Assembly (NCBI RefSeq): GCF_004365815.1
Contig: NZ_SODD01000016.1
Span: 11,999-43,998 of the forward strand
DNA: 32,000 nucleotides
Reading direction: 5' to 3'
Origin: Breznakia blatticola
GTDB taxonomy: Bacteria > Bacillota_I > Bacilli_A > Erysipelotrichales > Erysipelotrichaceae
Positions 1 to 24,709 of the stretch are shown piece after piece. The stretch's first letter is position 1, and each line of letters begins with the position of its first letter. A program made the position numbers and the translations under genes. The notes under the pieces were generated by a model. The model was not told where the DNA came from. It saw nothing but the letters and a program-made list of their open reading frames with translations, and searched no databases.

Positions 1-146
1 AATAATTGGGTAAGATTGTCATAAAGGAGTCCCAGACATACAAGTTAGTCATAACTAACTATCCACATAATACACGATATAAAAGTATGTGTCAACTGAT
101 ATGTTCTAAAAAGTTTTATCTTGAGTTAGAAATAGTTAACAAATCA

Positions 147-175
147 TTGACAAGGAGGTTAACCAGTGCTAACAT
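147..175 (+). promoter_or_regulatory. Candidate sigma-A promoter of the feo operon with an operator-like inverted repeat in the spacer
   Basis: TTGACA (147-152), 17-nt spacer, TGcTAACAT extended -10 (167-175), ~30 nt upstream of the feoA RBS. The spacer and -10 carry the imperfect inverted repeat GTTAAC-CAGT-GCTAAC (158-173). Confidence 0.45.
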
Positions 176-205
176 TACAATGAAAAATAAGAAAGGATGA
201 TACAT

Positions 206-418
206 ATGCCATTAATTATCGCACCATTAGGAAAATCAGTAAAAGTATTAAAATACTCTTTAGATGAGGGTTCAGAAAAACGTTTGCGTGATTTAGGTTT
301 AGTTCCTGGATGTGAAATCGCTGTTGTTCAAGAAAGTGGCGGAGATTTAATCATCCAAGTGAAAGATGCAAGAATTGCATTGAATAAAAGTTTAGCAAGA
401 AAGATCTTTGTTGCGTAA
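206..418 (+). CDS. feoA: FeoA-family ferrous iron transport protein (copy 1)
   Basis: ~70-aa SH3-like FeoA pattern (LRDLGLVPGCEIAVV...). First gene of a feoA-feoA-feoB run. ATG at 206 preferred over 197 because GAAAGGA sits 8 nt upstream of it. Confidence 0.85.
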   Translation: MPLIIAPLGKSVKVLKYSLDEGSEKRLRDLGLVPGCEIAVVQESGGDLIIQVKDARIALNKSLARKIFVA

Positions 419-435
419 GCTGTGGGAGGAATACT

Positions 436-654
436 ATGAATTTAAAAGATGTAAAACCTGGAGAAACAGTCACTGTCACTAAGGTAAATGGAGCAGGACC
501 GATTCGCCGTCGTATATTTGATATGGGAATCACCCCAAATACAGAAATTTATGTACGTAAAGTTGCACCATTAGGAGACCCTATTGAAATAACATTACGT
601 GGATATGAATTATCATTACGTAAAGCAGAAGCTCAAGAAATCGAGGTTAAGTAG
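436..654 (+). CDS. feoA: FeoA-family ferrous iron transport protein (copy 2)
   Basis: 72 aa, RRRIFDMGITPNTEIYV... FeoA pattern. GGAGG RBS. Lies directly upstream of feoB. Confidence 0.85.
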   Translation: MNLKDVKPGETVTVTKVNGAGPIRRRIFDMGITPNTEIYVRKVAPLGDPIEITLRGYELSLRKAEAQEIEVK

Positions 655-657
655 GAT

Positions 658-2712
658 ATGAAGATTGCATTAGTTGGAAATCCAAACAGTGGGAAAACAA
701 CACTATTTAACGAATTAACTGGTTCAACTGCCAAAGTTGGAAACTGGGCAGGAGTTACGGTTGATAAAAAAGAAGGAACCTATAAAAAAGCGAAAACACC
801 GATGGACATTATTGACCTTCCAGGTGTTTATTCTTTGTCTCCATATACATTAGAGGAAGTAATTGCACGTGATTATATTGTAAATGAGCAACCAGATGCA
901 ATTATCAATATTGTTGATGCAACAAACTTAGAAAGAAACTTGTATTTAACAACACAAATCTTAGAAACCGATATCCCTGTAGTTATCGCTCTAAACATGA
1001 TGGATGTTGTAAAAAAGACAAAAGATGAAATCAACACGAAAGCAATTGAACAAAAACTGGGTGTGCCTGTTATTGAAATCAGTGCACTTCGTGGAGAAAA
1101 TATTCATGAGCTGATGAATGTAGTTGCTGCACTAGCAAAAAAACGTGAACCACTTGATATTTTTAGTGGAACACAACTAGAAAGTTCATATCGTTCACTT
1201 GTTGATTTATTTACAAAACACAATGTAAAACAACCATGTTTTACGGCAAGCAAAGTGTTAGAAAATGATGAGAAGATTTTATCGTTTGATGAAGTAAAAG
1301 CTTTGCAAGCTGAAATTGAAAAGATTACAACATTAACTGAAGATAACGAAGCATTAATGGCAGATATTCGTTATGGGTATATTGATGAACAATTACGTAG
1401 TGCGATTAAAAAATCAAAAGTACTTGGAGAAATGAGCACATCCGATAAAATTGATAAGGTACTAACAAACCGTATTGTGGGACTTCCAATATTTGCACTA
1501 ATTATGTTTTTGATTTTCCACTGTACGTTTTCAGAAAACTTCTTAGGACTTGGTATTGCTTCACCTGGGGTATATATTCAAGGGCTAACTGAAATTCCAA
1601 TTGAATGGATATCTGATGGACTAACTGGATTACTTGATTCACTAGGTGCATCTGCATGGGTATATGGATTAGTCATTCAAGGGATTGTTGCTGGAGTTGG
1701 TGGTGTATTATCGTTTATTCCACAAATTCTATTAATCTTCTTATTCCTATCATTCTTAGAAGATAGTGGATATATGGCACGTGTCGTATTTATTATGGAC
1801 CGAATTCTACGTCGCTTTGGTTTATCAGGAAAAGCATTCTTACCATTATTAACTGGGTTTGGATGTTCTGTGCCAGCAATTATGGGTGCTCGTACATTAG
1901 AAGGTGAAAAGGAACGAAAACTTACGATGTTACTAGTTCCATATATGTCTTGTGGGGCAAAGGCACCAATTTGGGCAATCTTTGCAGCTGCAGTATTTCC
2001 GAATCATGCAGATATTATGACTTTTGGAATATATTTCTTAGGAATCTTTGTTGCTGTGATTTCTGCAGTTCTACTTAAACGTCTTGTATTTAAAGGAGAA
2101 ACAACACCGTTTGTTATGGAAATGCCAACCTATCATTGGCCACGGTTTAAAAACTTAATGCTACGTTTGTGGGATAAATTAAAAGGATATATTACACGTG
2201 CAGGAACCGTAATTCTTGCAAGTACAATTGTTCTTTGGTTTTTAGGTAACTTTGATTTCTCCTTACAAATGGTGGAAGCAAACTCAGATACAAGTATCTT
2301 AGGAGTAGTTGCTGATTCTATTACATTTATCTTTAGACCATTAGGATTTGCAAGTGGAAGTGCTGGATGGAAAGCAGTAGTTGCCATTCTAACAGGACTT
2401 GTTGCTAAAGAAGCGGTCGTTTCAACAATGGGAGTTCTTTACACAGGAATGGAAAGTGAAGAAGAATTCTTGGGAGAAGATGAAGCAACAACATCTCTTG
2501 TCGCAACAATTGGACAAACCTTTACGCCACTTGCTGCCATCTCATTTATGGCATTTAACTTATTAAGTATTCCATGTATGGCTGCAGTTGCTGCTTTACG
2601 TGCAGAAATGAATGATCGTAAGTTATTTATATTTACGATGACATATTGGGTTGTGATTGCTTGGATTGTTTCATTCTTAATCTACAACGTGGGAAGCCTA
2701 CTGGGGTTCTAG
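658..2712 (+). CDS. feoB: Ferrous iron transporter FeoB (N-terminal GTPase + polytopic membrane domain)
   Basis: G1 motif GNPNSGKTTLFN, DLPGVYSL, NMMD, followed by a long hydrophobic permease region. 684 aa. Confidence 0.95.
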   Translation: MKIALVGNPNSGKTTLFNELTGSTAKVGNWAGVTVDKKEGTYKKAKTPMDIIDLPGVYSLSPYTLEEVIARDYIVNEQPDAIINIVDATNLERNLYLTTQILETDIPVVIALNMMDVVKKTKDEINTKAIEQKLGVPVIEISALRGENIHELMNVVAALAKKREPLDIFSGTQLESSYRSLVDLFTKHNVKQPCFTASKVLENDEKILSFDEVKALQAEIEKITTLTEDNEALMADIRYGYIDEQLRSAIKKSKVLGEMSTSDKIDKVLTNRIVGLPIFALIMFLIFHCTFSENFLGLGIASPGVYIQGLTEIPIEWISDGLTGLLDSLGASAWVYGLVIQGIVAGVGGVLSFIPQILLIFLFLSFLEDSGYMARVVFIMDRILRRFGLSGKAFLPLLTGFGCSVPAIMGARTLEGEKERKLTMLLVPYMSCGAKAPIWAIFAAAVFPNHADIMTFGIYFLGIFVAVISAVLLKRLVFKGETTPFVMEMPTYHWPRFKNLMLRLWDKLKGYITRAGTVILASTIVLWFLGNFDFSLQMVEANSDTSILGVVADSITFIFRPLGFASGSAGWKAVVAILTGLVAKEAVVSTMGVLYTGMESEEEFLGEDEATTSLVATIGQTFTPLAAISFMAFNLLSIPCMAAVAALRAEMNDRKLFIFTMTYWVVIAWIVSFLIYNVGSLLGF

Positions 2713-2716
2713 AACT

Positions 2717-2923
2717 ATGAAACCTGTAGACATTGTAGTCCTTGTACTAGCTATTGGCTTTGTGGGGTTCATCGTCTATACGCAATACAAAAAACACCAA
2801 GCAAGAAAAGCAAGTGGTATTATAGGGTGTGGAGGAAGTTGCACAGGCTGTTCAGATAAAGCAGCATGTGAAACCATCCGTAACATCAAAGAAATAATCA
2901 AAGAGGATGAAGCCAAGAAATAA
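2717..2923 (+). CDS. FeoB-associated Cys-rich small membrane protein
   Basis: 68 aa with one N-terminal TM helix then CGGSCTGCSDKAAC. Starts 5 nt after the feoB stop. Confidence 0.7.
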   Translation: MKPVDIVVLVLAIGFVGFIVYTQYKKHQARKASGIIGCGGSCTGCSDKAACETIRNIKEIIKEDEAKK

Positions 2924-2942
2924 TGGCAACATCCTCTTTTTT
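2901..2942 (+). terminator. Intrinsic terminator of the feo operon
   Basis: AAGAGGATG (2901-2909) pairs with CATCCTCTT (2930-2938), followed by a T-run. Confidence 0.5.
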
Positions 2943-2949
2943 GGTAAAT

Positions 2950-2973
2950 AAAAAATAGCGTATGACTCGCTAT
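2950..2973 (-). terminator. Intrinsic terminator for the minus-strand DtxR-family gene
   Basis: ATAGCG/CGCTAT stem (2955-2960 / 2968-2973). The A-run on the plus strand is a U-run on the minus strand. Overlaps the stop codon. Confidence 0.45.
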
Positions 2974-3344
2974 TTCTTATACTCATTAATCATTCGTTCA
3001 ATACTCTCGAATGTTTCGTTTGATATGATGTGTTCAATTCGACACGCATCTTTTTCTGCTATTTCTTCTGAAACTTTCAATACCTCAATCAAAAAGCTTC
3101 GGATGGTTGTGTGACGATGAAAAATCATCGCTCCCATTTCTTTTCCAGACTTTGTAAGTGTGATGCCACCGTAAACTTCTTGGGTGATGAGACCGCGATC
3201 CTTTAAGTTGTTAACAGCTTTATTTACACTTGGTTTAGAGACACCCATCATTTTTGCTACGTCAATCGAACGCACTTTATCGCTTTGTTCAGACAGAACC
3301 ATGATGGTTTCTAGGTAGTCTTCTAATGATTCGCCTAAAAGCAT
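2970..3344 (-). CDS. DtxR/MntR-family metal-dependent transcriptional repressor (short form, no SH3-like C-domain)
   Basis: EDYLETI..., wHTH VSKPSVNKAVNNLKDRGLI, dimerisation/metal-site region HRHTTIRSFL...ACRIEH. 124 aa. Adjacent to the feo operon. Confidence 0.85.
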   Translation of the reverse strand: MLLGESLEDYLETIMVLSEQSDKVRSIDVAKMMGVSKPSVNKAVNNLKDRGLITQEVYGGITLTKSGKEMGAMIFHRHTTIRSFLIEVLKVSEEIAEKDACRIEHIISNETFESIERMINEYKK

Positions 3345-3396
3345 ATTATCACCTCGCTTATCGCTATTATATCATATGATGTCTAATTTTTTCACA

Positions 3397-3756
3397 TTAT
3401 GCCTGGCGAATCATATCTAGGTAGGTTGCTTCTTTGAAGCCAACAGTAACTTGATCGTTCACCATTAAGATTGGTCGTTTTACTAACATTCCATTGCTAG
3501 CTAATAATTTGATTTGTTCATCTTCACTCATAGAATGAATCGTATCTTTGATTCGCATTTGGCGATACACGCCTCCAGAGGTATTCCAGAAACTTTGAAG
3601 TGATACATTACTCATTTCATAAAGCTTTCTCAGTTCTTCTTCAGTCAGTTTCTCTGCTACGATATCTCTTGTTTTAAACTGCACATTATTCATTTCCAAA
3701 AAGCGTTTTGCTTTTTGACATGTGCTACATCTTTGGTAACCCATTAGTAGTATCAT
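3397..3756 (-). CDS. ArsC/Spx-family (thioredoxin-fold) protein
   Basis: 119 aa. N-terminal CSTC redox-type motif in a YQRCSTCQKAKRFL context, and LVKRPIL near the C-terminus, typical of the ArsC/Spx/YffB family. Confidence 0.75.
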   Translation of the reverse strand: MILLMGYQRCSTCQKAKRFLEMNNVQFKTRDIVAEKLTEEELRKLYEMSNVSLQSFWNTSGGVYRQMRIKDTIHSMSEDEQIKLLASNGMLVKRPILMVNDQVTVGFKEATYLDMIRQA

Positions 3757-3902
3757 ATATGTTCTCCTCGAGATTTACCTACATATTATAACGTGATAAC
3801 GCTTTCTTTTCTACCCTTTTGTTAGTGATGTAAATCTGGTATAATTTCAAGGTGAAAATACTTGCTTTACTTGTACCTTTATGGTTAAATAACCATACAT
3901 CA

Positions 3903-4036
3903 ATTATCAAGAGATGGGGTAGAGAGTTAGCTCGTTAGATCCCACGCCAACCTCACTATATGTGAAAGGTGGTACTGCTAACAACGATAAGAGAAGAATA
4001 CTTGAAAAAGCAATGCCTTCTCGTGAGGCATTTTTT
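3903..4036 (+). promoter_or_regulatory. SAM-I (S-box) riboswitch with intrinsic terminator, controlling metK
   Basis: TTATCAAGAG...GGTAGAGAG...CCCACGCCAACC...GGTGGTACTGCTAAC...GATAAG matches the S-box core layout. The terminator AATGCCT/AGGCATT + T6 lies at 4012-4036, just before metK. Confidence 0.85.
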
Positions 4037-4059
4037 AATTGCCAGAAAGGAATTTATTG

Positions 4060-5160
4060 ATGAAAGATTACATTTTTACCAGTGAAAGTATCACTGAAGG
4101 GCACTCAGATAAAATCTGTGACCAAATTGCTGATGCGATTTTAGATGCTGCATTACGTGAAGATCCAAATAGTAAAATGGCGGTGGAAGCGACAATTAAA
4201 GATGATTTTGTGTTAATTTATGGAGAAGCAAACACGAAAGCAGTAATTGATTATCCAGCAATCGCGAAAGCAGTAATTAAGAAAATTGGCTATGAAGAAG
4301 ACTATAATGTACTTGTGAAAGTAAACCGTCAAAGTGCAGAAATCTATGCTGCTGTAGAAGAAAATGATGGAGAAGTTGGTGCTGGTGACCAAGGGTTGAT
4401 GTTTGGTTATGCATGTGATGAATCTGATGAATACATGCCTGCTCCAATTTATTATGCACACAAACTGGCACGTAAACTTACAGAAGTACGTCGTCAACAT
4501 GCAGATATTTTAAAACCAGATGGAAAAACACAAGTATCTGTTGAATACAAAGATGATAAAGTAAGTCGTATTGATACAGTTGTTGTTTCTACACAACATG
4601 CTGAAGGTGTAAGCCAAGAAGAAATCAAAGAACTTATTATGAATGAAGTCGTACGTCCTTCATTAGAAGTAGAACTTGTTGATGAAAATACAAAATACAT
4701 TATCAACCCAAGTGGAAGTTTCATTGTAGGTGGATCCTTTGGTGATTCAGGAACAACTGGACGTAAAATCGTCGTAGATACATACGGTGGAATGGGACGT
4801 ATTGGAGGAGGATGTTTATCAAGTAAAGATCCAACTAAAGTGGACCGTTCTGCAGCATATTATGCACGTTATGTTGCCAAAAGTGTAGTAGCTAATAAAC
4901 TTGCACGTCGTTGTGAAGTTCAAGTTGCTTATGCAATTGGTAAAGGAGAACCTGTATCGTTATTAGTAGATACATTTGGTACAGGAGTTACAAGTGATGA
5001 GCAACTACTTGAAATCATTAAAAAGAACTTTGATTTCTCAGTACGTAACATTCTTGAAGAACTTGATCTGAAAAAACCAGTATATGCAAAAACTGCATGT
5101 TATGGACATTTCGGAGATCCTCAATTCAGTTGGGAAAAAATTAAAAAAATCGAAAAATAG
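4060..5160 (+). CDS. metK: S-adenosylmethionine synthetase
   Basis: GHSDKICDQIADAILDA, GAGDQGLMFGYA, GGGCLSSKDPTKVDRSAAY motifs. ATG at 4060 preferred (RBS AGAAAGGA) over the in-frame TTG at 4039. Confidence 0.95.
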   Translation: MKDYIFTSESITEGHSDKICDQIADAILDAALREDPNSKMAVEATIKDDFVLIYGEANTKAVIDYPAIAKAVIKKIGYEEDYNVLVKVNRQSAEIYAAVEENDGEVGAGDQGLMFGYACDESDEYMPAPIYYAHKLARKLTEVRRQHADILKPDGKTQVSVEYKDDKVSRIDTVVVSTQHAEGVSQEEIKELIMNEVVRPSLEVELVDENTKYIINPSGSFIVGGSFGDSGTTGRKIVVDTYGGMGRIGGGCLSSKDPTKVDRSAAYYARYVAKSVVANKLARRCEVQVAYAIGKGEPVSLLVDTFGTGVTSDEQLLEIIKKNFDFSVRNILEELDLKKPVYAKTACYGHFGDPQFSWEKIKKIEK

Positions 5161-5168
5161 AGAATTTA

Positions 5169-5203
5169 AAGATAGTTTCACTTATGAGACTATCTTTTCT
5201 TTT
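5169..5203 (+). terminator. Intrinsic terminator after metK
   Basis: AAGATAGT (5169-5176) pairs with ACTATCTT (5189-5196), followed by a TTCTTTTC tail. Confidence 0.6.
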
Positions 5204-5264
5204 CAAATACAGGTATTTGCATATTCTCTTTAATTATTGGACAAAGTATATTATAATAGGTTGG

Positions 5265-5478
5265 AATAAGCGATGAGAAAAAGAGTAAGTATGAAACGTT
5301 CTCTAGAGAGCAAATGGTTGGTGTAAATTTGCGAATGCGTCATAGTGAAGATGGTTTTTGAGCTTTCATATCGATATGTAGGTATGAACGTATGCGGCGT
5401 TAACGCACTTAAGGTATGTATAAGCATACAAAATAAGGTGGTAACACGGTAGTCTCGTCCTTTGGGTGGGATTTTTTA
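5265..5478 (+). promoter_or_regulatory. T-box leader (Met specifier) controlling metG
   Basis: Stem I start AGCGATGAGAAAAAGAGTA, AUG specifier followed by A (5291-5294), and T-box sequence AATAAGGTGGTAACACGG (5431-5448). A wobble-rich hairpin CTCGTCC-TTT-GGGTGGG + T-run follows at 5454-5478. Confidence 0.85.
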
Positions 5479-5495
5479 TTTTATATGGAGGTAAC

Positions 5496-7415
5496 ATGGA
5501 AAAGAAAAAGTATTATCTAACAACCCCAATTTATTATCCAAGTGATAATTTTCATATTGGGCACTGTTATACAACAGTAATTGCAGATACATTAGCACGT
5601 TATAAACGTGCCAAAGGTTTTGATGTATTCTTTTTAACAGGTACAGATGAACATGGACAAAAAATTGAAGAACGTGCAAAACTTGCTGGAACAGATCCAA
5701 AGAGTTTCGTGGATAAAATTGTCGCTAATGCGCAAGACTTATGGTCATCATTAGGAATTACATACGATAAGTTTATTCGTACAACAGATGAATATCATGT
5801 CAAAGCTGTTCAAAAGATGTTCCGTGATTTATATGAAAAAGGGGATATCTATAAAGGTGAGTATGAAGGTTGGTACTGTACACCAGATGAGTCATTTTGG
5901 ACAGATTCACAACTTGTCGATGGAAAATGTCCAGAGTGTGGACGTGAAGTAAAAAAAGTAAAAGAAGAATCGTATTTCTTACGCTTAAGTAATTATCAAA
6001 AACAATTAGAAGAATACTTGGAAAGTCATCCGGAATTGATGCAACCAGAATCTCGTTATAAAGAAATGTTAAATAACTTCTTAAAACCAGGTCTTCAAGA
6101 TTTATCGGTTTCAAGAACAAGTTTCAAATGGGGAATTCCTGTTGATTTTGATCCAGACCATGTAATCTATGTATGGATGGATGCACTTTCAAACTATATT
6201 ACAGCACTTGGATATAACAGTGATGATGATTCTTTGTTTCAAAAATACTGGCCAGCTGAACTGCACCTAGTTGGAAAAGAAATCTTTAGATTCCACACAT
6301 TAATTTGGCCAATTATGTTGATGGCACTTGATTTGCCATTACCAAAACAAGTGTATGGACATGGATGGCTAGTTGTTGATGGAGGAAAAATTTCTAAATC
6401 ATTAGGTAACTATAAAGATCCACGTGTATATATTAATGACTATGGCGTAGACGCTGTACGTTATTACTTGTTAAGTGAAGTACCATTTGGAAATGATGGA
6501 AACTTCTCAGAAAAACTACTCGTGGAAAGAAGTAATTCAGATTTAGCCAATGTATTAGGAAATTTAGTAAACCGTACAGTAAGTATGACAAACAAATACT
6601 TTGGTGGAACTGTAACAAATACGAAAGTACATGAAACCGTAGATGAAGATTTAATTCGTACAGTAAATGAATTAAATGCAAAAGTAGAAGCGAAAATGGA
6701 TACATTACATGTGGATGCAGCGATTGCTGAAATCTTCAATGTATTAAAACGTACCAACCGTTATGTTGATGAAACAACACCTTGGGTGTTAGGAAAAGAT
6801 GAAAGTAAACAAGATCGTCTACAAACTGTCTTATTTAACTTGCTTGAAGCAATACGTGTTTGTACAATCCAATTAGAAGCATTCATTCCAAAAAGTGCAC
6901 AAGCGATTTTTGATCAACTACAAACAGATGCACGTACATTTGATACTGTTGCCTTTGGTAGTGTGGATAGCTACACGGTCGTAGAAAAACCTTCCATTCT
7001 ATTTGCGCGTATTGATGAAAAAGAATTAGAAGAAAAATGGGCAAAAGAAGCTGCTGCAGTTGAAGAAACTACAGAAGAAGTACAAGAAACAAAACCAGAA
7101 ATTACATTTGATGATTTCATGAAAACGGAAATGAAAGTTGGTTTAATCGAAGCGTGTGAAAAGCATCCAAAAGCAGATAAACTACTTGTTTCACAAATCA
7201 ACATTGGAACGGAAACACGTCAAGTGGTGAGTGGAATTGCACCAGACTATACACCTGAAGATATGATTGGTAAAAAAGTTATCGTCGTGACAAACTTAAA
7301 ACCAGCAAAAATTCGTGGTGTGGAAAGCCAAGGTATGATTCTTGTTGGTGAAGATGCAAATGGAATTGAGGTCGTAAATCTTAAGAGTATGGAACCAGGA
7401 GCAACTGTTCGCTAA
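5496..7415 (+). CDS. metG: Methionyl-tRNA synthetase with C-terminal tRNA-binding (EMAP/Trbp111-like) domain
   Basis: HIGH-type motif FHIGHCYT, KMSKS-type motif KISKS, a CPECG zinc knuckle, and a C-terminal KVGLIEACEKHPKADKLLVSQINIG OB-fold. ATG at 5496 follows GGAGG. Confidence 0.95.
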   Translation: MEKKKYYLTTPIYYPSDNFHIGHCYTTVIADTLARYKRAKGFDVFFLTGTDEHGQKIEERAKLAGTDPKSFVDKIVANAQDLWSSLGITYDKFIRTTDEYHVKAVQKMFRDLYEKGDIYKGEYEGWYCTPDESFWTDSQLVDGKCPECGREVKKVKEESYFLRLSNYQKQLEEYLESHPELMQPESRYKEMLNNFLKPGLQDLSVSRTSFKWGIPVDFDPDHVIYVWMDALSNYITALGYNSDDDSLFQKYWPAELHLVGKEIFRFHTLIWPIMLMALDLPLPKQVYGHGWLVVDGGKISKSLGNYKDPRVYINDYGVDAVRYYLLSEVPFGNDGNFSEKLLVERSNSDLANVLGNLVNRTVSMTNKYFGGTVTNTKVHETVDEDLIRTVNELNAKVEAKMDTLHVDAAIAEIFNVLKRTNRYVDETTPWVLGKDESKQDRLQTVLFNLLEAIRVCTIQLEAFIPKSAQAIFDQLQTDARTFDTVAFGSVDSYTVVEKPSILFARIDEKELEEKWAKEAAAVEETTEEVQETKPEITFDDFMKTEMKVGLIEACEKHPKADKLLVSQINIGTETRQVVSGIAPDYTPEDMIGKKVIVVTNLKPAKIRGVESQGMILVGEDANGIEVVNLKSMEPGATVR

Positions 7416-8335
7416 TGAAACAACATAAACGATATCAAACCAGTATAATTTTATTACTGGTTTGTTTCGCATTTATATACAAAGGAATTCGTGATGCGCA
7501 AACGCCAATGATTGTCATCGGTGTGTTTTTAGCAATATATGCGACGATACGAATCGTCTTATTACTCACCTTATCAAATGTAGCGCAACAAGAAATTGTG
7601 GAAGATAGTGATATGACAAGCGCTTACTTGCGTACAAATTATGAGCGTTACATCGAAATGTATATTCTTTATAAAAAAGGTGAATGCGAAGTTCTATATG
7701 AAGAAAATGATGGCTTGTTGCTGCTAAGTCATGCAGATGATATGTATTATGCAAGTGCTAAAAATAAACAAGCAGCGATGGATATTTTACAACTCATTCC
7801 ACAGGATTATCATGGCTTGTGTGTTTGCGATGATATTTTTATAGAATGCATAGATTCGTATATTACGTATGGGACAAAGTTCAACTCATACAATTTGGTA
7901 TATGAAAAACAAGAGAAAGCAGTGCTGACAAATACAACAATTCGTATTCAACCATTAACTGAAAAAGATATTGAGATTGTAAAGCAAACGTACAGTAATC
8001 CAATTTATGATCAGCCTGGGTATATTGCATCATGTATTAAAAATGGAATGCTTGGTGCATATGTGGATGATAAACTTGCTGGATATATAGGTTTACATAA
8101 CAGTGGAGCAATTGGACTTTTAGAAGTGTTTGAAGACTATCGTCAACAAGGGATTGCCAAAACACTTGTAGCAAGTATGATTAATCACTGCCTTGAGACA
8201 AAACAAATTGCATATACGCAAGTTCAACAAAAAAATGAAACTTCATTGCAGTTACAAGAAAAGTTAGGATTTACAAAAGCAGATAAACCGTGTGTGTGGA
8301 TATTTAAAAAAGAGATGGAGACATTACATGAATAA
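7415..8335 (+). CDS. GNAT-family N-acetyltransferase with N-terminal membrane segment
   Basis: Two N-terminal hydrophobic helices. The C-terminal part has an acetyl-CoA motif context VFEDYRQQGIAKTLV. The start overlaps the metG stop. Confidence 0.6.
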   Translation: MKQHKRYQTSIILLLVCFAFIYKGIRDAQTPMIVIGVFLAIYATIRIVLLLTLSNVAQQEIVEDSDMTSAYLRTNYERYIEMYILYKKGECEVLYEENDGLLLLSHADDMYYASAKNKQAAMDILQLIPQDYHGLCVCDDIFIECIDSYITYGTKFNSYNLVYEKQEKAVLTNTTIRIQPLTEKDIEIVKQTYSNPIYDQPGYIASCIKNGMLGAYVDDKLAGYIGLHNSGAIGLLEVFEDYRQQGIAKTLVASMINHCLETKQIAYTQVQQKNETSLQLQEKLGFTKADKPCVWIFKKEMETLHE

Positions 8336-8843
8336 AGATGCATTAGACTTACTTTATAAACGACGAAGTATTCGTTCGTTTAAAGACACACAAATTCAAA
8401 AAGAAGAATTAGATGCAGTATTAAAAGCTGGTGTTCTTGCACCATGTGCAATGAATCGACAAACGACTTTGATGGTGGTCGTGCAAAGTCAAATTTATCG
8501 CGATGCATTAGTTGAATTAAAAAATGCTGGAACTGATAAAGATCCATTTTATGGAGCACCTACAATTATTGTGCTTTTTGCACCTGCAAATCACTATACA
8601 GCAATTGAAAATGCGTCGGCAGTACAAATGAATTTGATGCATGCAGCAAATGCGGTAGGACTGGCTTCATGTTGGGTACATATGCCAAAGGAAGTTTTCC
8701 AACAAGTAGAAGGAAAACAATTGATGTATGCATGGGGATTACCTGATGATGTGATTAGTATTGCAGCATTAGCTATAGGTTATCAAGATGGAGAAACACC
8801 TGAAGTCCCAGATAAAGAACAACATATTGTAATAAGTGTATAA
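8328..8843 (+). CDS. Nitroreductase-family protein
   Basis: LLYKRRSIRSF N-terminal signature and an overall nitroreductase-like pattern. ATG at 8328 preferred over the upstream in-frame start at 8292. Confidence 0.8.
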   Translation: MNKDALDLLYKRRSIRSFKDTQIQKEELDAVLKAGVLAPCAMNRQTTLMVVVQSQIYRDALVELKNAGTDKDPFYGAPTIIVLFAPANHYTAIENASAVQMNLMHAANAVGLASCWVHMPKEVFQQVEGKQLMYAWGLPDDVISIAALAIGYQDGETPEVPDKEQHIVISV

Positions 8844-8965
8844 ACGTGGAGGAATCTGCGTTTTTATTTTGAAACGAAGAGAGAAAAACATGGATTACAC
8901 TTTTTTTGAAAAATGCTTGCGTGTATAGTTGGTATATAGTGTACAAAAAAGGTAGGAGGTACATT

Positions 8966-9946
8966 ATGAAAATAAGTGATGTTGAAAAGAAGGTCAAAGT
9001 AAGTAAACAAACGATTATATACTATGAAAAGGAAGGTTTACTTCAACCAAAACGAGATGAAAATGACTTTCGTATATTTGATGATGAAGACATACGCCAA
9101 CTGGAAACAATCATTCAATTGCGAAGTTTTGATATTTCAATCGATGATATTCGTTTAATCTTACAAGGGAAAGTTTCGCTTCAAGAGATTCTAGATATTA
9201 CATCTATCCAATTGGAAGAAGAAATGGAAATTATGAAAAGACGTGTAGACCTAATTCAAGTAATCAAAGAAAAAGAATTACCTGTACTTAAAAATTATAA
9301 GCATCTTTCAAAACAAACAGATGGTTTAAAACTTGGTTATTTCAAAACCAATAAAACACCATCACTAGGAAGAAGGATGACAAGAAAACTAGCGTGGCGA
9401 CGTTTACTTAATGTGTTGCTTTTTTATCTCTTATTTGGTGTGTTTCTTAGTGCAATTGTAAGTATGATTGATGTTACACTTCCACCGATTGTGGGAATGT
9501 TGATAATTGGTGCACAAATACTTTGCAATATGATCTTAATTGGGTATACGAGATTTAGTAGTGATATTTATAATCGAAATAATTATATAGAGTTCTTAGA
9601 GGATGGTGTAAGGTATTATAAAAGCAATTCATTTTTTAAGGATGTACGATACTGGATATCTGCACTTTTTAAAACCAATGCATCACTACTAACATTTTGC
9701 GCGTATACAGATATACAAGAAGTAGAAATACAAATGCAACGAAAGATATTGTACTTTGGCTTTGGACCCGCCGGTTTTCCGTATGAGCAATATAACTTTA
9801 CCTTTACATTAGCTGGAAATAAACTACAATTACGAAATCCATTTACTGCTGCAGATGATCGAATGCTTATTGCTAATATACTAAAACGATATGTATCAAA
9901 TGTTACTGATGCAGGACAATTTATCGAGAAGTATACTACGTGCTAA
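8966..9946 (+). CDS. MerR-family HTH regulator fused to a membrane-spanning C-terminal region
   Basis: ISDVEKKVKVSKQTIIYYEKEGLL MerR HTH, then a coiled linker, then two hydrophobic helices (LLFYLLFGVFLSAIV..., MLIIGAQILCNMILIG). An AGGAGG RBS precedes the ATG at 8966. Confidence 0.7.
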   Translation: MKISDVEKKVKVSKQTIIYYEKEGLLQPKRDENDFRIFDDEDIRQLETIIQLRSFDISIDDIRLILQGKVSLQEILDITSIQLEEEMEIMKRRVDLIQVIKEKELPVLKNYKHLSKQTDGLKLGYFKTNKTPSLGRRMTRKLAWRRLLNVLLFYLLFGVFLSAIVSMIDVTLPPIVGMLIIGAQILCNMILIGYTRFSSDIYNRNNYIEFLEDGVRYYKSNSFFKDVRYWISALFKTNASLLTFCAYTDIQEVEIQMQRKILYFGFGPAGFPYEQYNFTFTLAGNKLQLRNPFTAADDRMLIANILKRYVSNVTDAGQFIEKYTTC

Positions 9947-17607: not shown

Positions 17608-18786
17608 ATGAATACATTGAATTATAGTTACTTATTGGAATCAGCATTAACAAACAAGAAATACTCACAATTGGATTTATTTAAATCGTTAGATGTGATT
17701 AGTGATGGAAAAAAATCTAATGTTTATTTGAGATGTGAACCTATACATGAGGAGTCATTTGATGGATATTTTGAAGATAAGACAGAAAATTCATTCTTTA
17801 TATACAAGTTTAATGGTGGATTACTCACTTTTAAGAACCAATATAAAGAGTTTATTGATAACTATAAACAAAAGAATAAGAAAGCAGTTTATGCAACACA
17901 ACTGAAAATGCTTTATCCAAGATCGATGAAAACTGTGAAAGAACGAAAGCAATTCATCTATGAATTCATGCACAATATAGTGAATTCAAATACAAAGGAA
18001 ATTAATGATAAAGGGAAGTTAGTTAATAAAACTACACATGTGCCATATGTTGTAGAAAATATTGAAAATGAATATGCGCAAACAACATACGCTTTGATAA
18101 CAGTGATAGATCGAGTGTATTTAGGTAATTATAAGCATAAACGATATCGACAAACACAATACATTGATAGTCGAACAAAGAAGTTTGCTAAGGATACTTG
18201 CCCAGAAGAATATAAAGAGCTTTCGTATAAAGCCGGAGACTTCATGTTAGACAAAAAAGGTAGAAAGATAAAGAATGATGTGTTATTTGGAAAGCGTGAA
18301 AGATTCTTTGCTTACCCCAAAAATGGATGGCTTAATTTCATCAATCGATTAAAGCGATGTGTAATAGCTGCATTCTGGAAACTTCGTAGTAACGGTTTTA
18401 CTGAAGGTAAAGTATTACGTAAAAGTCAAAACTTGCGTCATTATCCAAAAGTCATAAGAAGAAGAATCGGTGCAATAAATCATGCAAAAATAATAGTTCA
18501 ATACACAATTAACTATTTGTTGAAGTGGGAATACGAAATGAACTTGGTTAGAAAGGATAAAGACTGGAAGTTGGAGAAATTGAATAGTACAGTTGCCTAC
18601 CAGCAATTAGAAAAGATATTTGAACATTATAAAGCTAGATTTAAAAATCAATACTTCCATGATAAAGACGGAAAGAAAAGGTATATTCAGTATTACAAAC
18701 AACGAGTAAATGACTTAGAGAACAATATTGAGATCCTGATCAGAATGTTCTTTGAAGAAATTGAGAATGTGCAACTTACGTTATAA
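17608..18786 (+). CDS. Hypothetical basic K/R/Y/N-rich protein (392 aa); possible DNA-transaction (replication/mobilisation) role, not assignable
   Basis: Long ORF with an RBS (GAAGGGA), preceded by a 248-nt leader. No catalytic motif that I can name with confidence. Confidence 0.6.
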   Translation: MNTLNYSYLLESALTNKKYSQLDLFKSLDVISDGKKSNVYLRCEPIHEESFDGYFEDKTENSFFIYKFNGGLLTFKNQYKEFIDNYKQKNKKAVYATQLKMLYPRSMKTVKERKQFIYEFMHNIVNSNTKEINDKGKLVNKTTHVPYVVENIENEYAQTTYALITVIDRVYLGNYKHKRYRQTQYIDSRTKKFAKDTCPEEYKELSYKAGDFMLDKKGRKIKNDVLFGKRERFFAYPKNGWLNFINRLKRCVIAAFWKLRSNGFTEGKVLRKSQNLRHYPKVIRRRIGAINHAKIIVQYTINYLLKWEYEMNLVRKDKDWKLEKLNSTVAYQQLEKIFEHYKARFKNQYFHDKDGKKRYIQYYKQRVNDLENNIEILIRMFFEEIENVQLTL

Positions 18787-18798
18787 AGGAGAAAAGTT

Positions 18799-19230
18799 AT
18801 GGATTTATTTCAAGAGATTAATACGTTTACGATCACTATATTAATTGTAGCTGTTATATGTATTGGAGTTATTATTTTTGCTAATTCTGTAAAGGTAAAG
18901 TCATATATGAACAACAAAAAAAGCATACTGCATGAAATTAATCGAATTATCTCAAATCATGAGGTTGTTGAAGCGCATGTAGGGATTGAAGAGATAACCA
19001 AAGTAAGTAAAAGAAGAGTTATAAGGAAACGCAATTTGTATGTTACTTTCAAAAACTCCCAGACGCAGCAGGTATTTAAAAAGATTTTTTCATTAAATGG
19101 AATAAAAGTTAATTATATTGACGGTCTTGGTCGCTTTTTAGATGTTGATATCGAGAATGAAGTTATTGTATTACATGCAAAAGCAATTGCAACTCATGAT
19201 CGTATTGTGGATAGACGAATTCACAGATAA
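18799..19230 (+). CDS. N-terminally membrane-anchored hypothetical protein (143 aa)
   Basis: AAGGAG RBS. TM helix ITILIVAVICIGVIIFA. Confidence 0.5.
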   Translation: MDLFQEINTFTITILIVAVICIGVIIFANSVKVKSYMNNKKSILHEINRIISNHEVVEAHVGIEEITKVSKRRVIRKRNLYVTFKNSQTQQVFKKIFSLNGIKVNYIDGLGRFLDVDIENEVIVLHAKAIATHDRIVDRRIHR

Positions 19231-19238
19231 GAAAGGGT

Positions 19239-19667
19239 GTGTTTATATGCCAAAGTCATAAAGCATCAAGAACAATAATTCATCTTGGTGATCACGATCC
19301 TTCAGGAATTGATATGACGAGAGATATCCAGGAGCGTCTTAACCTATTCGAAGCAGATGTAAATGTAAAACGAGTAGCTTTAACGAAAAGACAAATCACT
19401 AAATATGGGCCACCACCAAACCCTGCTAAACTTACGGATTCACGCGTTGATAAATACATCGATAAATATGGAACTAGTAGTTGGGAACTTGATGCATTAG
19501 AACCACAGGTGATTGAAGACATTATTAAACAAGAAGTAAACAAGCTTGTAGATAAGTCTCTTCTTAAAGAGGTCGAAATGAAAGAAAACAACGACAAAGA
19601 GATCTTATTGAAGATTGAAAACAATTATGATCAAGTAAAACATTTTATAGAGAGTGAACAATTATGA
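19239..19667 (+). pseudogene. TopoVI-A/Spo11-type Toprim C-terminal fragment (possibly 5'-truncated or split)
   Basis: LGDHDPSGIDM (DxD Toprim motif) lies only ~16 aa from the ORF start, with WELDALEP downstream. The upstream Toprim Glu strand is absent. The GTG start sits 1 nt after the putative SD. Confidence 0.45.
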
Positions 19668-20759: not shown

Positions 20760-21539
20760 ATGACAACAGTATACGCAATAGAAAATCAAAAAGGTGGATG
20801 TGGTAAGACAACTACATCAATCCAAATCGCTGATTATGCAGCACATGTAGCAAATAAAAAAACACTAGTAATTGATGTGGATCCATCAGGAAATCTAACA
20901 AAAACGTTTTTAGGAACTGAAGTAGTGAAAAGAGATCTATTTACATTCTTGATGAATCGTCCAAAATCAACTGAAGGAATTGATGCATTTCAAAAAGTTG
21001 ATGAAAACTTATATATGCTCGGTTCAACAAAACAACTAAATGGAATTAACATGCAATCGGACTTCGATGCACCATTGATGCTTAGAGAAGCGCTAGAACC
21101 ATTCAAGTGGCTATTCGATGTAATCATTATTGATGGATGCCCTGAAATCACACAACTTACGCACAACTTGTTTGCAGCTGCAGATAAAGTGATCGTTCCT
21201 ATGAACCCAGGGTCCTATTCAGTTATGGGACTTGCAGATCTACAAAATGAAATTAGTTTTGTTAGAAAGATGTATAACCCAAATTTAAAAATTCATGGAT
21301 TGTTATTGTCTAATATTGATAAAAATACAAAAGCAGAACAAGCAATCAATGAAATGGCTAAGACATGCTGTGATTTGCTAGATACCAAAGTGTTTGATAA
21401 TACGGTGTATCATACAACAGTAATTAATGATGCACAGATTGCAGGTATTCCAATTCGCAAATACAAGAAAAGTCATAAAGTGAATATGGTATACACGGAA
21501 CTGTGCAATGAGATATTTAAAGAGGAGGGTTGGAAGTAA
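20760..21539 (+). CDS. parA: ParA/Soj-family partition ATPase
   Basis: Deviant Walker A NQKGGCGKTTT, then VIDVDPSGN and IIIDGCPE. Confidence 0.9.
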   Translation: MTTVYAIENQKGGCGKTTTSIQIADYAAHVANKKTLVIDVDPSGNLTKTFLGTEVVKRDLFTFLMNRPKSTEGIDAFQKVDENLYMLGSTKQLNGINMQSDFDAPLMLREALEPFKWLFDVIIIDGCPEITQLTHNLFAAADKVIVPMNPGSYSVMGLADLQNEISFVRKMYNPNLKIHGLLLSNIDKNTKAEQAINEMAKTCCDLLDTKVFDNTVYHTTVINDAQIAGIPIRKYKKSHKVNMVYTELCNEIFKEEGWK

Positions 21540-22366
21540 TGGACGTACAAGCAATGTTTGAAGCAAGTAATCGTGATGCACAAACACATGAAGAAGTTAA
21601 AGTAGTTCAAAATCGACCTAGGCTCCTTCATTACACACAATTAATTGCTCATGAACGTAACAGGAAGATAGATCAAGAGAAAGTAATGGATCTAGTTGAT
21701 TCGATTATGGTAATTGGTTTGGAACAATGTCCCACAGTAAATGTGATACCAGGACAACCTGGTAAATTTAAACTTACTGCTGGACATCACCGTACTGAAG
21801 CAGTTAGATATCTAGTTGAAGTGCTAGGTATGAAGGAATTCGAATACATCAATTGTATTGTAAAAGAAGTAGACGCAATCGATGAAGAAATGAGTTTATA
21901 TGATACGAACTTGGTAATTAATGAACTTAGCAATTATGACAAAATGCAAGCAATTGGACGCAAGTCAGAATTAATTCAAAAGATGAAAGATCGTGGAGAC
22001 AATTTACCAGGTAAAATGAGAGACTTATTAGCTGAAAATCTAGATATGGCCACAACTCAAGTCCAAAAATATCTAACAGTCTACCGTAAAGCATCTCCAG
22101 TAACTAAGGAAGCTCTTCAAAATAATGAAATATCTTTTGAACAAGCTTATGCACTGTCAAAAATGTCATTTGAGGAACAGGATACTTTAGCTAATAAAGA
22201 CAACAAAATAAATGCACAGAAAAGTGATAAGAATGCAGATATAGAAACTTGGTGTTACAAACTCATTAACAAGGAGTTCACAAAAGGATTAGAATATGGC
22301 CACATTGACGAGCGTGATTATGATGCTTTGTGCAGTATATTGTATAAAGCAATGGAAAGGGGTTAG
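21539..22366 (+). CDS. ParB-like (ParB/Srx N-terminal domain) partition/nuclease-family protein
   Basis: FKLTAGHHRTEAVRYL ParB-box-like motif. The ATG at 21539 lies 10 nt after AGGAGGG and overlaps the parA stop (TAATG). Confidence 0.8.
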   Translation: MDVQAMFEASNRDAQTHEEVKVVQNRPRLLHYTQLIAHERNRKIDQEKVMDLVDSIMVIGLEQCPTVNVIPGQPGKFKLTAGHHRTEAVRYLVEVLGMKEFEYINCIVKEVDAIDEEMSLYDTNLVINELSNYDKMQAIGRKSELIQKMKDRGDNLPGKMRDLLAENLDMATTQVQKYLTVYRKASPVTKEALQNNEISFEQAYALSKMSFEEQDTLANKDNKINAQKSDKNADIETWCYKLINKEFTKGLEYGHIDERDYDALCSILYKAMERG

Positions 22367-22701: not shown

Positions 22702-23145
22702 ATGTTGCCATATATAAACATGATTGATGAAAAGAAAACGCGTGAGCAATTGCGTAGACACATTAAATCGATGGAAATACTCATAGATCAGCCAATGTTT
22801 TATGAAGAAAACTCTCTACAGTCATGTAGTGTCATTGATACTACGCAACAAGGGAATTCAGATCGTGATGTTCAATTACACAAAGCAATTAGAAACATGC
22901 AACTATCGGAACAAAAATCAAATTACATTGAATTCTTTATGACTGCATTGAACAAACTTCCTGCAGATAAAAGAAGTCTTATAATTAACAGGTATTTTCA
23001 TAAGATGGATGAAGAAGAACTTCAAGACTGTATGGGGTATGGATTAAGAAAATTGAGGGAAGAGTTGAAAGATGCAGAAACACAATTGGCAATTTGTCTA
23101 AATTGTGAAGTCGAAAGGAAACCAAAACATGCAAACAAAAACTAA
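22702..23145 (+). CDS. Sigma-70 region-4-like / ArpU-like putative transcription factor
   Basis: 147 aa. LNKLPADKRSLIINRYFHKMDEEELQDCMGYGLRKLREELKDA resembles a sigma r4 HTH layout. AGGAGG RBS. Confidence 0.45.
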   Translation: MLPYINMIDEKKTREQLRRHIKSMEILIDQPMFYEENSLQSCSVIDTTQQGNSDRDVQLHKAIRNMQLSEQKSNYIEFFMTALNKLPADKRSLIINRYFHKMDEEELQDCMGYGLRKLREELKDAETQLAICLNCEVERKPKHANKN

Positions 23146-23554
23146 AGCGATTATTGCGATTGTAACTGTTGTTTTTATCCTTGGTGCTGCAGCATTTGTT
23201 GTATCAAGTGAGTTTATGCATCAGCAAGATGAAAAAGCAGTAGTTGCTGAAAAGGAAAAACAAGAAAAAGAGGCAGAACAAACAAAGAAACAAAAACCCG
23301 TTTTAGATCTAACTCAAGAAGAGGTTGATTTAGAAGTTGGTTCGACGTTTGTGTTCGAAGACTATATAAAACGTGCTGAAGATGAAAAAGGCTATAATTT
23401 AAAAGACTTTGTAAAAGTTGGTAAGCAGTTGAATACAGATACTGAAGGGAAATATAAAGTCACGTATAGACTCGATTTACCAAGTGGTGAGAATATATCG
23501 AAAGATTTAATCGTTAATGTCATAAAGTTCGAAAAAAGCACGAATCCGGATTAA
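23129..23554 (+). CDS. Membrane-anchored protein with Ig-like extracellular domain
   Basis: The ATG at 23129 follows GAAAGGAAA. It has a TM helix, an EK-rich linker, and a domain (LDLTQEEVDLEVGSTFVFEDYIK...YKVTY) shared with the ORFs at 24710 and 29494. Confidence 0.55.
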   Translation: MQTKTKAIIAIVTVVFILGAAAFVVSSEFMHQQDEKAVVAEKEKQEKEAEQTKKQKPVLDLTQEEVDLEVGSTFVFEDYIKRAEDEKGYNLKDFVKVGKQLNTDTEGKYKVTYRLDLPSGENISKDLIVNVIKFEKSTNPD

Positions 23555-23652
23555 AGTTTATGATTTTTAAAAGTAAGAGTAGTTCATACGTTGTACCTTT
23601 ATTCCTTAGCATATTTGTTATATTATATTTAGTGACATATAAAGGGGTAAAC

Positions 23653-24282
23653 ATGGATGGATTAATAATAGCAATAGTATCTGCTGTATTAACTTGGTTT
23701 GTAACCAAATTAATAGATGGGAATAACAAAAGACTGGATATGAGCTGGTTGATATATGAAGATCTATTGAACAATCTCTACAGAGCAAGAGAACTTGAAA
23801 AAAGATATGTTTATGAATTGAGTAAGCAACTAGAAAATTTTGACCAGGTAGATTATTCATCAGATACGATTATAGTGAGATTTGATTTTGAAGTATTAAG
23901 TGACATACTCATGGAGTTTATGAGATGCAGAAACAAATTTCTATCGCATTCTAGAATCTTTCAAAAGAAAGTAAGCACAAGTAGAAAAGAAAAAGTAGCA
24001 AAATGGATGAACATTGAAACGAATGTACAAAAATTTACAAATTGTTTGATTGAATATAACGATTATTTTGAACATGATTTTCAATATATGAATGAATTTT
24101 ATGTAAAACTTAACGCAGTTCGAAGCGAAATTAAGTATGAAAAGTCAGTTTATCCAGGACAAATTGGAGAAAATGTGGACTCAATAATCAAAGAATTTCA
24201 CTCAATCAACTTGAAAGTTACGCATTCTCCAGAAGAAGGAATCGTTGATTATATAAGCAATGTGTTTAAAAAAGTGGTTTAA
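23653..24282 (+). CDS. N-terminally membrane-anchored hypothetical protein (209 aa)
   Basis: The ATG at 23653 follows AAAGGGG. The upstream in-frame ATG at 23560 lacks an RBS. Confidence 0.5.
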   Translation: MDGLIIAIVSAVLTWFVTKLIDGNNKRLDMSWLIYEDLLNNLYRARELEKRYVYELSKQLENFDQVDYSSDTIIVRFDFEVLSDILMEFMRCRNKFLSHSRIFQKKVSTSRKEKVAKWMNIETNVQKFTNCLIEYNDYFEHDFQYMNEFYVKLNAVRSEIKYEKSVYPGQIGENVDSIIKEFHSINLKVTHSPEEGIVDYISNVFKKVV

Positions 24283-24334
24283 TAGTAATTGTGAGGCATA
24301 TGAAACCCTTATAAATAAAGGACTTTTGAATGGT

Positions 24335-24576
24335 GTGCAAAAAAGCGACCAAAAAGCGTGCAAAAAAGCGACCAAAAAAGTGACCAAAAAGCGTGCAAAA
24401 AAGCGACCAAAAAAGTGACCAAAAAGCGTGCAAAAAAGCGACCAAAAAGTTGACCAAAAAGCGTGCAAAAAAGCGACCAAAAAGTTGACCAAAAAGCGAC
24501 CAAAAAGTTGACCAAAAAGCGTGCAAAAAAGTGACCAAAAAAGCGACCAAAAAACGACCAAAAAAGTGACCAAAAA
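24335..24576. repeat. Array of 21 tandem 10-12-bp A-tract repeats (GCGTGCA6 / GCGACCA5-6 / GTGACCA5-6 / GTTGACCA5), mean period ~11.5 bp, with a 35-bp super-repeat
   Basis: Parsed unit by unit from the sequence. Unit triplets (e.g. GCGTGCAAAAAA-GCGACCAAAAAA-GTGACCAAAAA) repeat four times. The array is non-coding. Confidence 0.95.
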
Positions 24577-24603
24577 TGTGCCTTTTTTTGTAACATAGGA
24601 ATG

Positions 24604-24612
24604 TGCTAAAAT
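24604..24612 (+). promoter_or_regulatory. Candidate extended -10 promoter (TGcTAAAAT) for the surface-protein operon
   Basis: Lies 28 nt after the repeat array and ~100 nt upstream of the ATG at 24710. The -35 region is only T-rich. Confidence 0.4.
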
Positions 24613-24709
24613 GATAGTGTGGAATTTTAGACATAGCACATCTCCTGAAAGATGTGTTTTATTTTATCTTTTTTGGCTAATAAGAAAAAACTATAGAGGA
24701 GAAAGAAAA

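Follow-up and report, generated by a model that had tools for sequence, protein, structure and literature searches.

We analyzed a 32,000-nucleotide stretch of the Breznakia blatticola chromosome (contig NZ_SODD01000016.1, positions 11,999 to 43,998; referred to here as the window), in which an island is inserted after a tRNA-Leu gene, and focused on an array of 21 short direct repeats just upstream of the predicted promoter of the island's adhesin operon. Comparison with related elements suggests that this array is an expanded cognate operator, or upstream activating sequence, for the island's own 147-aa ArpU/Ltr-family activator of the adhesin/conjugation operon, a reading that we regard as fairly likely, and that it is probably not a plasmid centromere. 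We infer binding by the activator, activation, the position of the start site, and any role of the high copy number from these comparisons. The features at the center of the argument are the following.

24335-24576, plus strand: direct-repeat array, 21 units with a 35-bp higher order; proposed multi-site operator (sequence; arrays at the matching position in the related elements L102 and L104)
24577-24582, plus strand: pseudo-unit TGTGCC; proposed promoter-proximal site, at approximately -42 to -37 relative to the predicted transcription start near 24619
24604-24612, plus strand: extended -10 element TGcTAAAAT without a recognizable -35 hexamer; predicted promoter (sequence)
22702-23145, plus strand: ArpU/Ltr-family activator-like protein of 147 aa with a sigma region-4-like C terminus; proposed array binder (PHROG, profile search, structure model)

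The repeat array and its promoter

Direct reading and parsing of the sequence gave 21 consecutive head-to-tail units on the plus strand, each consisting of a 6- to 7-nt G/C core and then A5 or A6. Seven units have the core GCGACC, five have GCGTGC, four have GTGACC, and three have GTTGACC, while GTGTGC and CGACC occur once each; successive units start 11 or 12 bp apart, with no other spacing and a mean of ∼11.5 to 11.6 bp. By unit type, the order reads T'C / TCV / TCV / TCW / TCW / CW / TVC / C'V. Tandem Repeats Finder assigned the array a period of 35 (6.5 copies, 88% matches, score 319), with overlapping rows at periods 23 and 58. The sequence-only reading that preceded this work had described 21 head-to-tail units with a mean period of ∼11.5 bp, four core types followed by A5 to A6, and four 35-bp super-repeats; the parsing bears out each of these, with four full triplets in the unit order and the single GTGTGC and CGACC cores as additions. 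The 35-bp (three-unit) and 23-bp (two-unit) higher orders indicate recent block duplications.

A two-unit pattern matched 10 times in the window, always within the array, and had no match in 100 shuffles. Outside the array, the only single unit in the window was a AAAAAGCGACC at 19129 (minus strand). A coding role for the array was rejected: a period of 35 bp is not divisible by 3 and allows no periodic peptide, and the three minus-strand open reading frames (ORFs) across it are stop-free artifacts that arise because the repeat contains no stop codons.

The pseudo-unit TGTGCC stands in register as a 22nd position, 11 bp past the last full unit. From the end of the array, the gap is 25 bp to TGTGCTAAAAT (24602-24612), which contains the extended -10, and 27 bp to the TG of the extended -10 itself, close to the 28 bp given in the sequence-only reading. 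AATGTGCTAAAA is invariant across the window, L102, and L104, and ATGTGCTAAAATG is found at the matching place in 10 loci and only once within the window. A consensus sigma-70 scan detected no -35/-10 pair at this promoter. From the sequence, we infer promoter activity at 24604-24612 and a transcription start near 24619.

Arrays and ArpU/Ltr-like proteins in related elements

Related contigs were reached through homologues of the 323-aa protein encoded by the first gene of the adhesin operon, in other Breznakia genomes and in read archives. In L102 and L104, the gene order is ParA, ParB, a 136-aa ORF, a short intergenic region, the 323-aa homologue, a SpaA adhesin 83 to 88% identical to that of the window, and more genes up to a VirB4-like AAA_10 protein. 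Both carry an array between the small ORF and AATGTGCTAAAA. The L102 array consists of 12 copies of TGAGACTTTCG with an exact 11-bp period and begins ∼10 bp past the ArpU-like stop codon, and that of L104 consists of 8 copies of TGAGAAAATAT with spacings of 10 to 12 bp, mostly 11; both arrays are in phase with the TGTGC of the -10. Half of the L102 spacers (6 of 12) are CTTTCG and contain no A-tract. A third and more distant element, L123, shares only 40% identity with the window in its first operon gene; there, three ACAGT repeats spaced 22 and 11 bp apart come after a 141-aa small-ORF homologue and keep the register of TGCTATAAT. In all three elements, the array starts just past the stop codon of the small ArpU/Ltr-family gene. 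No array was present in the elements that have another gene in place of an ArpU-like one upstream, namely, L103 and L111 (both with VapD), L112 (117-aa protein), L113, and L124, and this includes two elements, L113 and L124, in which ParA/ParB are present with a Mob_Pre relaxase upstream. Common to the elements is an ∼11-bp direct-repeat array phased with the extended -10 and located after a small ORF; the unit sequence and the A-tracts vary from element to element.

Profile matches and a structure model indicate that the small ORFs are ArpU/Ltr-like, with a predicted sigma region-4-like C-terminal domain. The 147-aa window protein matched the PHROG family phrog_248, annotated as a transcriptional activator, at an E value of 4.3e-10 over residues 3-141; the L102 and L104 small ORFs matched it at 5e-17 and 2e-16 and also matched TIGR01637 (phage_arpU) at ∼1e-6. 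Weak matches of the window protein to sigma-70 region 4 models were obtained as well. A profile search recovered 91 relatives, and 32 of the 38 aligned members match TIGR01637 (best E value, 3e-35); a cluster look-up returned one name only, ArpU family phage transcriptional regulator. In the AlphaFold model of the 147-aa protein, only the C-terminal half (approximately residues 70-139; pLDDT, 71-90) is confident. The model's top Foldseek matches in the PDB were all ECF sigma factors or their region 4 (-35-binding) domains, at E values of only 0.03 to 0.1, and included 3hug (root mean square deviation, 1.0 Å over 62 columns) and 2h27 (1.8 Å over 61 columns). Word-index searches with the 147-aa and 136-aa proteins returned only the proteins themselves and the L104 variant, and tblastn of the 136-aa protein against phage and plasmid collections gave no match.

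We compared L102 and L104, in which nearly all proteins are 96 to 100% identical, for sequences that change along with the array. The two arrays have no unit sequence in common. Nucleotide identity drops to 0.54 exactly across the 3′ half of the ArpU-like gene and the array and recovers at the promoter. The ArpU-like proteins are 77% identical, with the first difference at residue 19 and 32 of the 33 differences at residues 38-136, and ParA is 98% identical. ParB is 92% identical, with 19 of its 24 differences at residues 236-321 and five at residues 26-98. Two other candidate binders were rejected on the same comparison, namely, the 102-aa protein, which is 100% identical in L102 and L104 despite their different arrays, and the XRE proteins as dedicated array binders, since the XRE gene of L102 is absent from L104. 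From this comparison, the ArpU-like protein is the only candidate that is both always upstream of the array and changing with it.

This arrangement resembles a known one. Ltr proteins (RinA, ArpU, LtrA, LtrB, and LtrC) form a superfamily. RinA, ArpU, and LtrC bind 2 to 4 direct repeats of 7 nt that directly follow the gene of the activator itself. This block of repeats is both required and enough for activation by the cognate protein, whose specificity is determined by its C-terminal region (Quiles-Puchalt et al. 2013, PMC3753634). Reading the phage sequences directly, we found TGGCAGT twice in 80alpha, with an 11-bp period from 5 nt past the rinA stop codon, and TGAC(R)(R)AAA five times in phi55, with a 9-bp period from the stop codon of ORF034 (LtrC). 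With the Ltr systems (RinA of 80alpha/phi11, ArpU of phiFL2A, LtrC of phi55) the Breznakia elements appear to share a ∼140-aa protein with a sigma region-4-like C terminus; direct repeats of a 6- to 7-nt core plus an A-rich spacer, the period being 9 to 11 bp in the phages; the location of the repeats within a few nucleotides of the activator stop codon in L102, L104, and L123; covariation of the repeat sequence with the C-terminal part of the protein, in the one pair L102/L104; and, as the target, the first promoter of a large "late" operon, the phage sites lying upstream of the terS promoter. They differ in having 8 to 21 units rather than 2 to 5, in residing in an integrated island (conjugative by analogy with L102 and L104) rather than a phage, and in having as the target an adhesin operon, with type IV secretion system (T4SS) genes in the relatives, rather than terminase or lysis genes. 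Moreover, the repeats continue in register right into the extended -10, and in the window two ORFs lie between the regulator gene and the array. The sequence-only reading had found no named family with this unit composition, which holds for the unit sequence but not for the architecture, since short cores with A-rich spacers, repeated after an Ltr gene, have already been published for phages.

In the proposed mechanism, the sigma region-4-like C-terminal helix-turn-helix would read the 6- to 7-nt G/C core of each unit, and activator molecules would stack head to tail at intervals of roughly one helical turn, as far as the pseudo-unit near -40. Those closest to the promoter, which combines a good extended -10 (TGcTAAAAT) with the lack of a -35, would recruit RNA polymerase or complete it. 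The operon, from the 323-aa protein and the LPXTG adhesin onward, would thereby be switched on; in the sister elements, type IV secretion genes follow. In the window itself, no T4SS genes were seen, and its operon may represent the front of a conjugation/adhesin operon by analogy with the relatives.

Several observations weigh against an operator of the 147-aa protein. By itself, the window protein falls below the TIGR01637 and NCBIfam cut-offs, and it is ∼20% identical to the L102 and L104 proteins, with no BLAST match. Its gene is separated from the array by the 149- and 240-aa ORFs (1.19 kb), and there is no link of the protein to the window's own unit sequence. The covariation comes from a single sister pair, and the diverged block also takes in the ParB C terminus and could be a recombination patch. 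The array of 21 sites far exceeds any characterized Ltr operator, and its 11.5-bp period drifts by ∼34 degrees per unit around the helix. Finally, the L104-type array was the same in six independent read sets, but all six are from a single study and may represent one strain.

We also searched more widely for the window's array, and in the searches made the 21-unit version was found in one genome only. Megablast of 23500-25700 against the PLSDB plasmids gave no match, and the two-unit degenerate pattern gave just two single chance hits in IMG/VR and 97 loci, none with a comparable array, in 185,579 GTDB species genomes. Read by eye, the GTDB loci with multiple matches were (AAAAAAGTGACC)3-5, apparent coding repeats of a KSDQ tetrapeptide, and were rejected as unrelated biology; they occur in Campylobacterota (L051, L054, L077, L089, L047, L025, and L014) and Bacteroidales (L010). 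The KSDQ repeats sit in a linker before a possible helix-turn-helix-type domain, and their unit looks like that of the window. A three-unit stretch apparently within coding sequence (L026, by eye) and a three-unit remnant beside tRNA genes (L071) were likewise rejected. Searches of metagenome and viral contigs with the ArpU-like alignments and the 323-aa family yielded no confirmed relatives.

Exact-protein look-ups of the flanking genes returned one read set only, with contigs ending inside the array. A short-read assembly of the same strain (Logan SRR8436184) splits there into two contigs, the break inside the array forming the end of L100 and the start of L101. Another contig, L126 (Logan SRR31913104, 1-800), starts exactly at AAAATGATAGTGTGGA (window position 24608), as if the assembly had broken in an upstream array. 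Downstream of the promoter leader, L126 carries a homologue of the 149-aa ORF found in the window, then an 84-aa ORF, and then the 327-aa homologue. Because this order differs from that of the window, the gene order around the array appears to have been reshuffled among relatives by mosaic rearrangement.

Competing explanations for the array

The length of the array could be mostly neutral. In this explanation, which is compatible with an ArpU/Ltr operator, a few promoter-proximal units work, and the other ∼15 are tolerated products of slippage or unequal crossover. The block duplications suggested by the 35-bp and 23-bp higher orders would fit such an expansion, as would the detection of the 21-unit version in one genome only and the smaller numbers that suffice elsewhere, three repeats in L123 and 2 to 5 in phages (PMC3753634; the 80alpha and phi55 sites). 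However, all units hold the 11- to 12-bp spacing with no decay, the L104-type array is the same in all six samples, and each of three elements has a long array with its own unit sequence; we consider mostly neutral expansion unlikely, if still conceivable. The three independent expansions (8, 12, and 21 units) in three unit sequences instead hint at selection for the multi-copy state. A bolder proposal is that long arrays are selected for because they would nucleate a head-to-tail activator filament on a right-handed DNA coil, which would make the control of conjugation and adhesin genes switch-like (threshold or bistable), and that they may double as a ParA-engaged segregation site like the omega arrays of pSM19035. 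We regard this proposal as speculative and doubtful. If true, the filament switch would add a regulatory architecture that neither Ltr/ArpU proteins nor conjugative elements are known to have.

The sequence-only reading named a centromere as its first option and placed the array 2 kb downstream of a parA/parB-like pair, in agreement with our measurement of 1969 bp from the end of the parB-like gene.

20760-22366, plus strand: ParA (259 aa; AAA_31/CbiA; gene at 20760-21539) and ParB_N-like (278 aa; gene at 21530-22366) pair; judged an unlikely partner of the array from the sister-element comparison

As a centromere, the array would be the partition site of this pair, or a dual operator and centromere as in pSM19035, with an adaptor coating the array and ParA moving the excised or replicating element. 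Arrays of 8 to 21 direct repeats at 11 to 12 bp are the classic look of parC, tubC, and stbS-type sites, and both the repeat number and the period near 11 to 12 bp are of this kind. Type II/III centromeres (R1 parC/ParR, pSK41 parC, pBtoxis tubC/TubR) and R388 stbS/StbA have ∼10 direct repeats about one helical turn apart, which are coated cooperatively by a small DNA-binding protein and overlap a promoter. In L102 and L104, moreover, the ParA and ParB genes directly precede the ArpU-like gene, and the ParB differences cluster in the C-terminal third, beside the diverged block. However, no ParM, TubZ, ParR, TubR, or StbA genes were found in the window, and Pfam, PHROG, and NCBIfam scans of the island ORFs gave only the Walker-type ParA and the ParB_N-like protein, with nothing ParM-, TubZ-, ParR-, or TubR-like, which leaves the analogy to R1 parC/ParR and tubC/TubR unsupported. 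The array directly adjoins the promoter of the adhesin operon rather than the par promoter and lies 2 kb past parAB. It does not covary with ParA or the bulk of ParB: the two sister arrays share no unit, while ParB residues 1-235 are identical but for the five differences within residues 26-98. In ParB proteins, the helix-turn-helix is usually located in the N-terminal or central parts, and ParB-type proteins normally bind palindromic parS sites. L113 and L124 have ParA/ParB before a homologous operon and lack an array, and L123 has three repeats only. The omega heptads of pSM19035 (inc18), in which 7 to 10 contiguous short repeats at promoters are bound cooperatively, provide a precedent for one array acting in both transcription control and partition with a ParA-type ATPase; they differ in that omega is a ribbon-helix-helix repressor binding contiguous 7-bp heptads of mixed orientation, whereas here the period is 11 to 12 bp, all repeats are direct, and the candidate is an activator-type helix-turn-helix protein. 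On balance, we consider a centromere, alone or combined with an operator, improbable.

Strong curvature had also been predicted for the array. A wedge model, run with parameters after Bolshoy et al. 1991 and approximate in its results, gave a bend of ∼44 degrees per 21 bp versus 18 degrees in shuffles, in line with strong local bending, and the L102 and L104 arrays (11.0-bp period) were also predicted to be bent and to be more planar-curved. Together with the A/T-rich DNA at -40 to -60, this would suit a protein-independent curved-DNA or UP-like element, in which phased A-tracts stimulate RNA polymerase directly, as at the plc promoter of Clostridium perfringens. Net planar curvature is not predicted, however, since a period of 11.5 bp does not match the 10.5-bp helical repeat: phasor sums are 0.89 at 11.5 bp and 0.13 at 10.5 bp, the ratio of end-to-end to contour length (0.87) equals that of shuffles, and the predicted shape is a right-handed coil. 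Known phased A-tract elements (the C. perfringens plc promoter, Bacillus phage promoters) also repeat A5-6 tracts upstream of a promoter, but they have 3 to 5 tracts at ∼10 to 10.5 bp and planar bends, compared with 21 tracts at 11.5 bp here. Across the elements, the period and register of the repeats are kept rather than their composition, as the CTTTCG spacers of L102 illustrate, and the unit core covaries with a DNA-binding protein. We consider an element of this type very unlikely. The sequence-only reading had offered a large activator or curvature element as a further option and had listed the sigma-like protein among the candidate binders; the activator half of that option is favored here, as the operator of this ArpU/Ltr-family protein, while the curvature half is at odds with the sister arrays, in which the A-tracts are not conserved.

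An iteron replication origin, the remaining option of the sequence-only reading, or an origin of transfer for the island would be consistent with tandem direct repeats near maintenance genes and with the 392-aa protein (17608-18786) encoded after an XRE gene, a possible initiator. However, L102 and L104 have arrays and no homologue of the 392-aa protein, no rep gene adjoins the array, and the 11- to 12-bp units are shorter than typical iterons of 17 to 22 bp. The array has no inverted repeat or nick-site-like element, and in L113 a Mob_Pre relaxase gene occupies the array's position, with no array. An origin of either kind is therefore extremely unlikely in our view.

The surrounding island and implications

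The array's downstream neighbors are a leader and the adhesin operon.

24635-24668, plus strand: terminator-like hairpin with a 9-bp stem and a U-run, in the 5′ leader of the adhesin operon (leader minimum free energy, -17.8 kcal/mol; z, -1.7)
24710-25681, plus strand: first operon gene, a 323-aa membrane-anchored Ig-like protein, ribosome-binding site GAGGAG at 24696-24701 (homologues P0002-P0014)
25881-29507, plus strand: LPXTG surface adhesin, 1208 aa, with SpaA prealbumin-like domains and a thioester/TQ-ester domain (88% and 83% identity to the L102 and L104 orthologues, respectively)

The hairpin sits in a ∼50- to 60-bp insertion that is missing from the L102, L104, and L126 leaders, and it could be an attenuator or an antitermination target. 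An Rfam search of 24200-24800 gave a sub-threshold RprA match only (E value, 0.63). As a separate observation, the window's ArpU-like protein has faint Q-antiterminator-like matches (phrog_79, E value 0.003; PF06530, E value 0.11). The 323-aa protein is 100% identical to EDD63_11653 of Breznakia blatticola (Erysipelotrichaceae), and its homologues head adhesin/T4SS operons in L102, L104, L113, and others. After the 1208-aa adhesin, the operon continues with a 230-aa protein and a 570-aa NT5C-domain protein.

Housekeeping genes (FeoB, MetK, MetG, and others) fill positions 1-12,400 of the window. The island starts after tRNA-Leu(taa) at 12707-12793 and extends past the window end, its left border being marked by tRNA-Leu, tRNA-Cys, and tRNA-Leu genes (12505-12793). 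A noncoding region at 13150-13900 contains several copies of AATTATTAGG / GGGATTGCCTAATAACCCA and of GGTCGTTTAWATAAAC, with spacings of 166 and 301 bp, and a 35-aa hydrophobic ORF at ∼13496-13603; it could be a type I toxin-antitoxin or an attachment/regulatory region. The island genes before the array encode two XRE proteins, the 392-aa protein, ParA, the ParB_N-like protein, the 102-aa protein, and the 147-aa sigma-like protein, followed by two membrane proteins, an Ig-like one of 149 aa and another of 240 aa. A 142-aa ORF at 19239-19667 aligns only to profile positions 170-301 of 303 of PHROG 6247, annotated as a DNA topoisomerase (E value, 4e-43), and looks like a truncated or split gene.

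Two further diverged regions were noted between L102 and L104. The only other strongly diverged block, beside the L102 XRE gene, contains 31-aa hydrophobic ORFs (MIHMIILEIIKIVLSFVSIAIDIIKLFSETD and a variant) on the minus strand, at L102 3788-4541 (two copies) and at L104 4537-4841, which resemble type I toxins. A second divergence hotspot, L102 8648-9800, with 58 to 80% nucleotide identity to L104 versus 96 to 100% elsewhere, spans the low-complexity C terminus of the protein encoded first in the operon as well as the N-terminal portion of the SpaA/LPXTG adhesin, which suggests diversifying selection or recombination on surface proteins.

An Ltr activator with cognate direct repeats is an architecture already published, and no new class of system is opened by our findings. 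What appears new, in comparison with the phage systems, is the integrated island (conjugative by analogy), the adhesin target (with T4SS genes in relatives), the 5- to 10-fold more copies, and the phasing into the extended -10. A literature search, incomplete in coverage, found no paper tying ArpU-type regulators to conjugation operons. As a practical warning, such arrays break short-read assemblies at regulatory regions and would be consistently lost from, or cut short in, genomes and metagenomes assembled from short reads. The natural series of 3, 8, 12, and 21 sites, with a sister pair of apparently swapped specificity, would offer a way to relate operator copy number to activation. If the operator reading is true, a phage late-gene master-switch module of the ArpU/RinA type would have been recruited in Firmicute mobile islands to drive the adhesin/conjugation operon, with an operator able to grow from 3 to 21 sites. 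It would also give a concrete, testable candidate mechanism of transfer-gene activation in the poorly studied Erysipelotrichaceae elements from insect guts.

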